This document shows, one piece after another, positions 8,228-8,413 of a stretch of DNA of 13,303 nucleotides. The notes beneath the pieces are model-generated. The model was not told where the DNA came from and searched no databases. It was given only the letters and a program-made list of their open reading frames with translations. Numbering within the stretch: position 1 is the first letter of the stretch; every line of letters begins with the position of its first letter. Source of the DNA: Simkaniaceae bacterium. GTDB lineage: Bacteria > Chlamydiota > Chlamydiia > Chlamydiales > Simkaniaceae. Position numbers and translations under genes: made by a program. The DNA lies in the NCBI GenBank assembly GCA_050248615.1, contig JBFWSA010000047.1:1-13303 (forward strand), read 5' to 3'.

Positions 8228-8413
8228 ATGAGTGAAACACTAGTCGTTGTCAGCAAAGTTAAGAAACATATTAAAGATAAAGCGGGAATGAATACCTCTG
8301 CAACTGCTATGGATGCTTTGACAAAAATCGTCGAAAGAGAGTGCTCAAAAGCCATTGAAAATGCACGCAGTGATGGGCGCAAAACAGTCATGGATCGTGA
8401 TTTTGAAATATAA
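8228..8413 (+). CDS. Bacterial histone-fold protein (singlet, Bdellovibrio Bd0055/HBb-type)
   Basis: 61 aa with LVVxSKVKK, MNTS, a long amphipathic second helix, and the histone L2/alpha3 signature A-x-x-x-GRKTV-x-x-x-D (ARSDGRKTVMDRDF). Strong SD GAGGTGA at 8217-8223. Confidence 0.92.
   Translation: MSETLVVVSKVKKHIKDKAGMNTSATAMDALTKIVERECSKAIENARSDGRKTVMDRDFEI

Follow-up and report, generated by a model that had tools for sequence, protein, structure and literature searches.

The closest described relative of the protein considered here is HBb (Bd0055) of Bdellovibrio bacteriovorus, whose structures have been deposited as PDB 8fvx, 8fw7, 8cmp, 9ezz and 9f0e, and which is placed among the 'bacterial dimer' alpha3 histones (PMC11390915). 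Both structure and function have been characterised for only two bacterial histones (PMC12701072). HBb has been found to bend DNA by TPM, circularisation and crystal structures (PMC11317129), whereas Bd0055 was modelled as an end-on nucleohistone filament (PMC10627809), and the binding mode is disputed between these two studies. In Bdellovibrio, HBb transcripts reach their maximum while the bacterium replicates in prey, and in attack-phase cells the protein is 12th of 2125 in rank. Attempts to delete the gene failed in predatory as well as host-independent strains, and it is probably essential. Two further relatives, HLp of Leptospira (9qt0) and HTkC of Thermococcus (9f2c), have the same alpha3-type short fold. 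The chlamydial proteins Hc1 and Hc2 (HctA and HctB) resemble the protein described below in being basic and DNA-binding, but unlike it they do not adopt the histone fold.

Chlamydiota are already listed among the phyla with HBb-type histones (PMC11390915, PMC11317129). Table S1 of PMC10627809 catalogues ADI38622.1/D6YWW1 (wcw_1270) of Waddlia chondrophila and CCB88880.1 of Simkania negevensis, and Fig. 1 of PMC12701072 aligns D6YWW1 with a Simkania entry (F8L7X8). High expression of the Waddlia histone has also been reported (PMC10627809), from the same dataset on elementary bodies (EBs) and reticulate bodies (RBs) that is used below. The family call of the original prediction, an HBb/Bd0055-type dimer histone in an environmental chlamydia, is therefore right but already published (PMC11390915, PMC11317129, PMC10627809); the HBb-type family has been on record for this phylum since 2023, and the protein studied here, P0001, is an expected member.

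The window, that is, the whole 13,303-nt stretch of DNA analysed, is one contig (C47) of a Simkaniaceae bin of 2.04 Mb, which is 96% complete and 0.8% contaminated. Placement in Simkaniaceae rests on genomes of the same family, whose proteins match or closely approach named entries from Simkania and Simkaniaceae. The features around the histone gene are as follows.

8022 to 8050, plus strand: predicted sigma66-type promoter (TTGTTA, 17 nt, TATATA), of putative function.
8047 to 8188, strand unassigned: TA-flanked hairpin MITE copy, 142 nt long, in which the central 22 nt of the approximately 165-nt full form are missing and which lies at the predicted -10 box.
8217 to 8224, plus strand: Shine-Dalgarno sequence GAGGTGAT, which matches the 3' end of the 16S of this genome (contig C38) over 8 nt, with the ATG 3 nt downstream.
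8228 to 8413, plus strand: HBb/Bd0055-type bacterial-dimer histone gene (P0001), 61 aa, recognised by sequence search, homologue alignment and structure model.

The 61-aa reading frame, its near-perfect Shine-Dalgarno sequence and the motifs quoted from the translation are all present as originally described, and the Shine-Dalgarno sequence pairs with the 16S 3' end of the same genome. Of the source genome's 1473 ORFs with 150 aa or more, only 3 have GAGGTGA ahead of the first ATG. An out-of-frame ATG-AGG-TGA at 8215-8223 overlaps the Shine-Dalgarno sequence and is probably a by-product of it. P0001 aligns without gaps to residues 1-60 of Bd0055/HBb with 35 of 60 positions identical (58%, E=4e-17), while its matches to HLp (E=1e-4), HTkC (E=1e-3) and HMfB (E=0.11) are progressively poorer. 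A protein search retained 692 relatives out of 694 candidates, the closest named ones being Chlamydiae and Simkaniaceae proteins; the Waddlia homologue is 72% identical and a Simkania homologue 78%. Pfam gave sub-threshold matches only (PF00808, E=0.023). Compared with 41 homologues, P0001 has a median pS of 0.76, with synonymous sites near saturation, and a median pN of 0.19, and the median dN/dS is 0.17 in the unsaturated pairs (23 of 861) of the homologue set. These values show P0001 to be a genuine gene on which purifying selection acts, and its membership of the HBb/Bd0055-type family is secure to the point of near certainty.

An AlphaFold2 model of P0001 based on 104 homologues (pLDDT 88) has helices at residues 3-19 and 25-48 and one helical turn at 56-58, in agreement with the very short alpha3 that had been read from the sequence. 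The AlphaFold comparison that had been proposed as a check gives a predicted histone fold with a TM score of 0.80 to HBb (9ezz) and 0.50 to HMfB (1a7w). The five top structure matches are all HBb entries (TM 0.77-0.80), followed by HLp and HTkC (TM 0.75-0.79). With the gapless 35/60 identity, this bears out the identification of a Bd0055/HBb-type histone in an environmental chlamydia. The likeness to HBb extends to the short alpha2, the one-turn alpha3, the SK motif, the RKTxxxxD clamp with D49 and the lack of a histidine at position 48, and the residue changes between the two are V8 for T8, N45 for S45 and S48 for A48. The RKTxxxxD motif, S9-K10 and the alpha1 lysines K12 and K16 are all present, and nine of the ten DNA-contact residues of HBb listed in PMC11317129 are kept, the tenth being T8, which is V in P0001. 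The proposed histone signature of R51, T53 and D58 holds in a wide sample, since these residues, together with K52, are invariant in 42/42 chlamydial homologues.

The residues that allow histone dimers to associate are those in which P0001 departs from other classes. Ser48 does occupy the place of the archaeal tetramer histidine (His placement from PMC10627809), as had been noted, and corresponds to A48 of Bd0055. The Arg and Asn of face-to-face histones, six and two residues before the arginine of the RxT motif (PMC11390915), are N45 and D49 in P0001, which thus lacks the tetramer residues of HLp and HTkC; a minority of chlamydial homologues carry R45 (4/42) or N49 (3/42). Nor does P0001 belong to the archaeal nucleosomal (HMf/HTk) histones, which have full-length alpha2/alpha3 and the four-helix-bundle His, given the TM score of 0.50, the E value of 0.11 to HMfB and the serine at the histidine position. 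Without His at 48 and face-to-face Arg and Asn at 45 and 49, the dimers are expected neither to stack nor to form a closed torus. On every sequence test P0001 belongs to the bacterial-dimer class, a category that is itself defined by sequence (PMC11390915), and it is very probably a DNA-bending dimer.

The gene is divergent from genes for a DUF6314 protein and an rlmB-like methyltransferase, and a Legionella-OMP-like gene follows downstream. DUF6314 is found near the histone in 10, the rlmB-like gene in 15 and the OMP-like gene in 12 of 20 Simkaniaceae loci, and this recurrence means that the histone gene is inherited and chromosomal there and does not derive from contamination. The neighbourhood differs from that of the Waddlia locus. 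The window also holds a TrpR repressor (362-640, minus strand) and a trehalase (2712-4163, plus strand); two genomes from a different family (L052 and L056) have a trehalase-like gene, identified by eye, next to their histone gene. One Chlamydiales assembly carries two identical histone copies on separate contigs (L086 and L087).

A protein search found an HBb-type histone in 67 of 301 sampled Chlamydiota genomes, and the concern that divergent copies had been overlooked was set aside when a 104-sequence profile recovered the same 67. By family, the gene is present in 23 of 25 other Simkaniaceae and in 5 of 6 members of the family holding Waddlia. It was not found by either search in the other 234 genomes, which include 0/30 in a family whose genomes mostly measure 1.0-1.3 Mb and which, from this size, we read as Chlamydiaceae, and 0/32 and 0/18 in two further Chlamydiota families. 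The histone is therefore accessory and patchy at the phylum level. In a quick tree of 115 histone proteins over 62 columns, 65 of 108 branches are open and the rows from chlamydiae, Oligoflexales and Bdellovibrionota are not separated; only the tailed histones discussed below form a starred long-branch group, and no donor of the chlamydial genes can be named from it.

Hc1 (PF07432) is encoded in 260 of the 300 Chlamydiota genomes scored (one of the 301 was unscored), namely in 60/67 histone-bearing genomes and in 200/233 of the remaining ones, where Hc1 occurs with no histone found. A replacement of Hc1 by the histone was rejected on these counts, and the histone adds to Hc1 and does not substitute for it. 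The idea, implied by the original prediction, of a histone-based alternative to Hc1 is thus not supported, since the source genome itself and most histone-bearing genomes encode Hc1. Coexistence with Hc1 and patchiness within the phylum are also points in which P0001 is unlike HBb. The Hc1 of the source genome (contig C38 near 11057; L002) is 85 aa long and has 13 Lys/Arg after residue 55; of the 30 Simkaniaceae Hc1 proteins extracted, no complete one is shorter. The same genome has one HU/IHF match, and Hc2 (PF07382) was not found in it with a model that may miss low-complexity forms.

Upstream of the gene, a motif similar to the predicted promoter is present at 11 of 20 Simkaniaceae loci, with its end 36-43 nt from the ATG, as compared to a shuffled mean of 0.66, a count made with the hairpin element removed and inflated because the pattern was drawn from the same loci. 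A sigma70 scan returned no plus-strand promoter upstream of the histone gene. The segment at 8047-8188 folds as a long hairpin (z=-12) and belongs to a family with at least 80 paired copies in the source genome, in size classes of 37, 72-75 and 164-167 nt, as against 0-1 ends in shuffles. The family has matches in 14/39 Simkaniaceae genomes (13/38 besides the source genome) and was not found in the same-genus genome G292. Without the MITE, the intergenic region measures 97 nt and can be aligned with the 95 nt that precede the same-genus orthologue, and the insertion point is the TA of the predicted -10 box. Because the TA is duplicated on insertion, the -35/-10 pair would be left intact and the mRNA would carry a hairpin leader of approximately 140 nt. 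MITE ends lie within 300 nt upstream of 1/42 histone loci, the window copy only, and the element is a recent passenger outside the conserved anatomy of the histone family. Consideration of the hairpin as a histone-linked RNA was abandoned, since Rfam yields only hairpin matches below threshold, the repeat is genome-wide and it occurs at one of 42 histone loci. We take this family to resemble the Correia, ERIC and RUP elements. An IS630-type DDE_3 transposase remnant with an internal stop (contig C22, 14160-14453; L144) is the sole match of its kind in the source genome and a possible source of TA-targeting MITEs.

The timing of expression can be approached through the Waddlia orthologue, ADI38622.1 at 1346999-1347187, which corresponds to WCW_RS06135 and wcw_1270 with one-to-one agreement in gene order. 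In a comparison of purified EBs and RBs with three replicates each (PMC6090853), normalised counts of wcw_1270 are 274.5 in RBs and 1147.7 in EBs, a 4.2-fold rise in EBs (log2FC -2.06, padj 3e-36, negative values denoting EB enrichment), and the same table gives -2.01 for hctA and -1.09 for ihfA. The gene is the second most EB-enriched among the 51 rows examined, which come from one of the 37 parts of the table, and 479 genes are EB-up genome-wide. Its flanking genes are EB-enriched too (-1.87 and -1.65), and its EB signal per kb is 2.3-6.4 times that of these two neighbours. The per-kb signal is 4-5 times below that of hctA, and in RBs it is at about the ihfA level, meaning that the gene is already expressed at that stage. 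The RNA in EBs may be carry-over. In a second dataset, iron-starved aberrant bodies of Waddlia were compared with 24-h RBs using unstranded counts (PMC7760296), and wcw_1270 falls with a logFC of -1.81 (FDR 5e-17), as compared to -1.27 for hctA, -0.86 for omcB, -0.78 and -0.79 for its neighbours and -0.24 for ihfA. In the sheet of 325 down-regulated genes it occupies the third data row, and the row order follows logFC in the five rows seen. These unstranded counts adjoin a convergent gene with similar read density.

Across the eight supplementary files of the Euo ChIP study (PMC4989314), wcw_1270 has no match and hctA has seven; hctA is thus an Euo ChIP target in Waddlia and the histone gene is unlisted in those files. 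A Wcw_1456 ChIP peak lies inside wcw_1270, but Wcw_1456 has 835 peaks. A table of 685 Waddlia EB heparin proteins holds no match for D6YWW1 and is uninformative, as the word 'histone' is also absent from it. A Waddlia gene of the acetylspermidine/histone-deacetylase family, WCW_RS06090 (L063, 2065-3021), is EB-enriched and located some 11 kb away from the histone gene, and no gene of this family was seen near the histone in the window. In eight public RNA runs, at most 0.18 of words match the source DNA. Contigs from three of the four RNA runs examined cover the histone gene, but they cover other stretches as well and therefore do not demonstrate its transcription. The contigs of two runs match the histone gene exactly and diverge right after the stop codon (8413), which suggests a strain with different downstream sequence.

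The late-gene pattern of mRNA, EB-enriched and reduced in aberrant bodies, is thus shared by hctA and the histone of Waddlia, and it is seen only for the Waddlia orthologue, which belongs to a different family from the source genome. What is new here is this hctA-like behaviour of wcw_1270 in two published RNA-seq tables. Neither the EB bias nor the aberrant-body drop was found stated in the literature searched, which included few subscription papers. Separate EB and RB values may be plotted in Fig. 6a of PMC10627809. The suggested link to the EB/RB cycle accordingly survives in part: the late-type mRNA of the Waddlia orthologue is real but indirect support, whereas the role as an alternative to Hc1 does not stand and the parallel with the attack-phase nucleoid of Bdellovibrio is weak. 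The HBb transcript has its maximum in the replicative phase, and the gene is undeletable in host-independent cells too, even if attack-phase cells contain much of the protein; the Waddlia mRNA, in contrast, is biased to the non-dividing infectious form.

Taken together, the fold, the residues, the purifying selection, the co-occurrence with Hc1 and the late-type Waddlia mRNA in published tables favour an HBb-type homodimer that bends DNA non-specifically without forming nucleosomes, is made late and acts as an accessory nucleoid protein beside Hc1, a reading to which we assign a probability of roughly 0.55. By analogy with HBb, P0001 is predicted to form a homodimer in which S9, K10, K12 and K16 of alpha1, together with N22, S24, K52, T53 and R57 of the L1-L2 region, would grip the backbone at minor grooves, so that DNA would be bent with neither sequence preference nor nucleosomes. 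By analogy with Waddlia, the transcript would rise as reticulate bodies convert to elementary bodies, and the histone would help to compact or organise the EB chromosome, beside Hc1. It is possible, but distinctly less probable, that the protein is a stage-independent, HU-like housekeeping DNA-bending dimer, in which case the EB bias would come from the stability of the mRNA, from a regional effect or from spill-over of reads, while iron stress or blocked division would account for the aberrant-body drop. Such a role would fit the shift of the wcw_1270 neighbours in the same direction in the EB/RB table, the unstranded counts of one study, the substantial expression in RBs, the absence of the gene from the Euo targets listed in the available files, and the growth-phase transcription and probable essentiality of HBb. 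However, the drop in aberrant bodies is about twice that of either neighbour and exceeds that of hctA while ihfA barely moves, and two independent datasets agree in direction.

The other two explanations concern how and where the protein would bind. High-density end-on coating of straight DNA as a nucleohistone filament, as in the Bd0055 model of PMC10627809, would protect or silence the EB genome in place of compaction by bending, and P0001 does share the Bd0055 residues and the lack of a tetramer interface, while the HBb binding mode is disputed between PMC10627809 and PMC11317129. Nonetheless, the bending of HBb by three approaches (PMC11317129) argues against it, as does the Waddlia mRNA level 4-5 times below hctA per kb, which, being mRNA only, speaks against genome-wide coating, and we consider such a filament improbable. 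Least probable is that the Simkaniaceae protein acts mainly as a heterodimer with the tailed histone introduced below, or away from its own chromosome, for example in the host nucleus. The paralogue aligns gaplessly over 58 columns and all nine tailed-histone genomes in the 301-genome sample also carry a P0001-type histone, but no tailed paralogue was found in 58/67 histone-bearing genomes, and the two genes are unlinked in the source genome and about 8 kb apart at the closest elsewhere; furthermore, a host-nucleus role is at odds with the fold beginning at residue 3 and with no secretion signal being evident.

The source genome encodes this second histone outside the window.

Contig C31, 24393 to 24605 (L001, 5394 to 5606), minus strand: second histone gene (P0122), 70 aa with a lysine-rich N-terminal tail.

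P0122 can be aligned with P0001 without gaps over 58 columns. Close matches occur in 9/301 Chlamydiota genomes, all Simkaniaceae, and in 13/39 Simkaniaceae genomes, whereas no second histone was found in Waddlia. Purifying selection acts on P0122 (median dN/dS 0.03 in 7/36 pairs), and unlike P0001 it has both tetramer residues of HLp and HTkC, as R56 and N60, the Arg at -6 and the Asn at -2, are invariant in 28/28 homologues. A four-copy model, which bears on a possible torus tetramer closed through the C-terminal alpha2, L2 and alpha3, scores 0.87 against 0.01 for the best control, with runs agreeing in at least 90% of contacts and pLDDT of at least 83; the mark set for such scores is reached by 20/30 solved pairs and 1/23 single chains in a calibration that was two-copy, unlike the four-copy job. 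The model has a confident second interface at residues 55-56, 59-60, 62 and 66-69, although the score may come from the dimer alone, and the four-copy model may show only a likeness to the solved HLp and HTkC complexes. The Simkania negevensis version, CCB88888.1, is already in Table S1 of PMC10627809, and charged tails are common in bacterial face-to-face histones (PMC11390915). The available parts of PMC12701072 and PMC11390915 do not list Chlamydiota as a phylum of the face-to-face class, and the supplements of the latter might already class the tailed Simkaniaceae histone. One MITE end lies 65 nt upstream of the P0122 gene. A shortening of Hc1 in genomes with the tailed histone (median 100 aa, n=9, as compared to 105 aa, n=21) is too weak to claim at p=0.045, as the genomes are related, and the comparison covers 30 of 31 loci, one protein being truncated.

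In Simkaniaceae, EB chromatin could be imagined in three layers, with Hc1, a late DNA-bending HBb-type dimer, and a lysine-tailed face-to-face tetramer that would wrap DNA into nucleosome-like particles, an arrangement we regard as doubtful. If it were true, a culturable bacterium would possess two histones under developmental regulation as one system, as Simkania negevensis encodes both histones.

To conclude, the mechanism of nucleoid compaction in chlamydial EBs is unsettled, and in C. trachomatis the knockdown of hctA and hctB left condensation intact (PMC13317200). The histone cannot explain this result, since C. trachomatis belongs to a family in which no histone was found. No bacterial histone tied to a developmental switch was found in the literature searched, and it is the timing that would matter. 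Environmental chlamydiae gain a concrete additional candidate for EB compaction, and the Waddlia timing data as well as the two-histone complement are testable in two culturable relatives.
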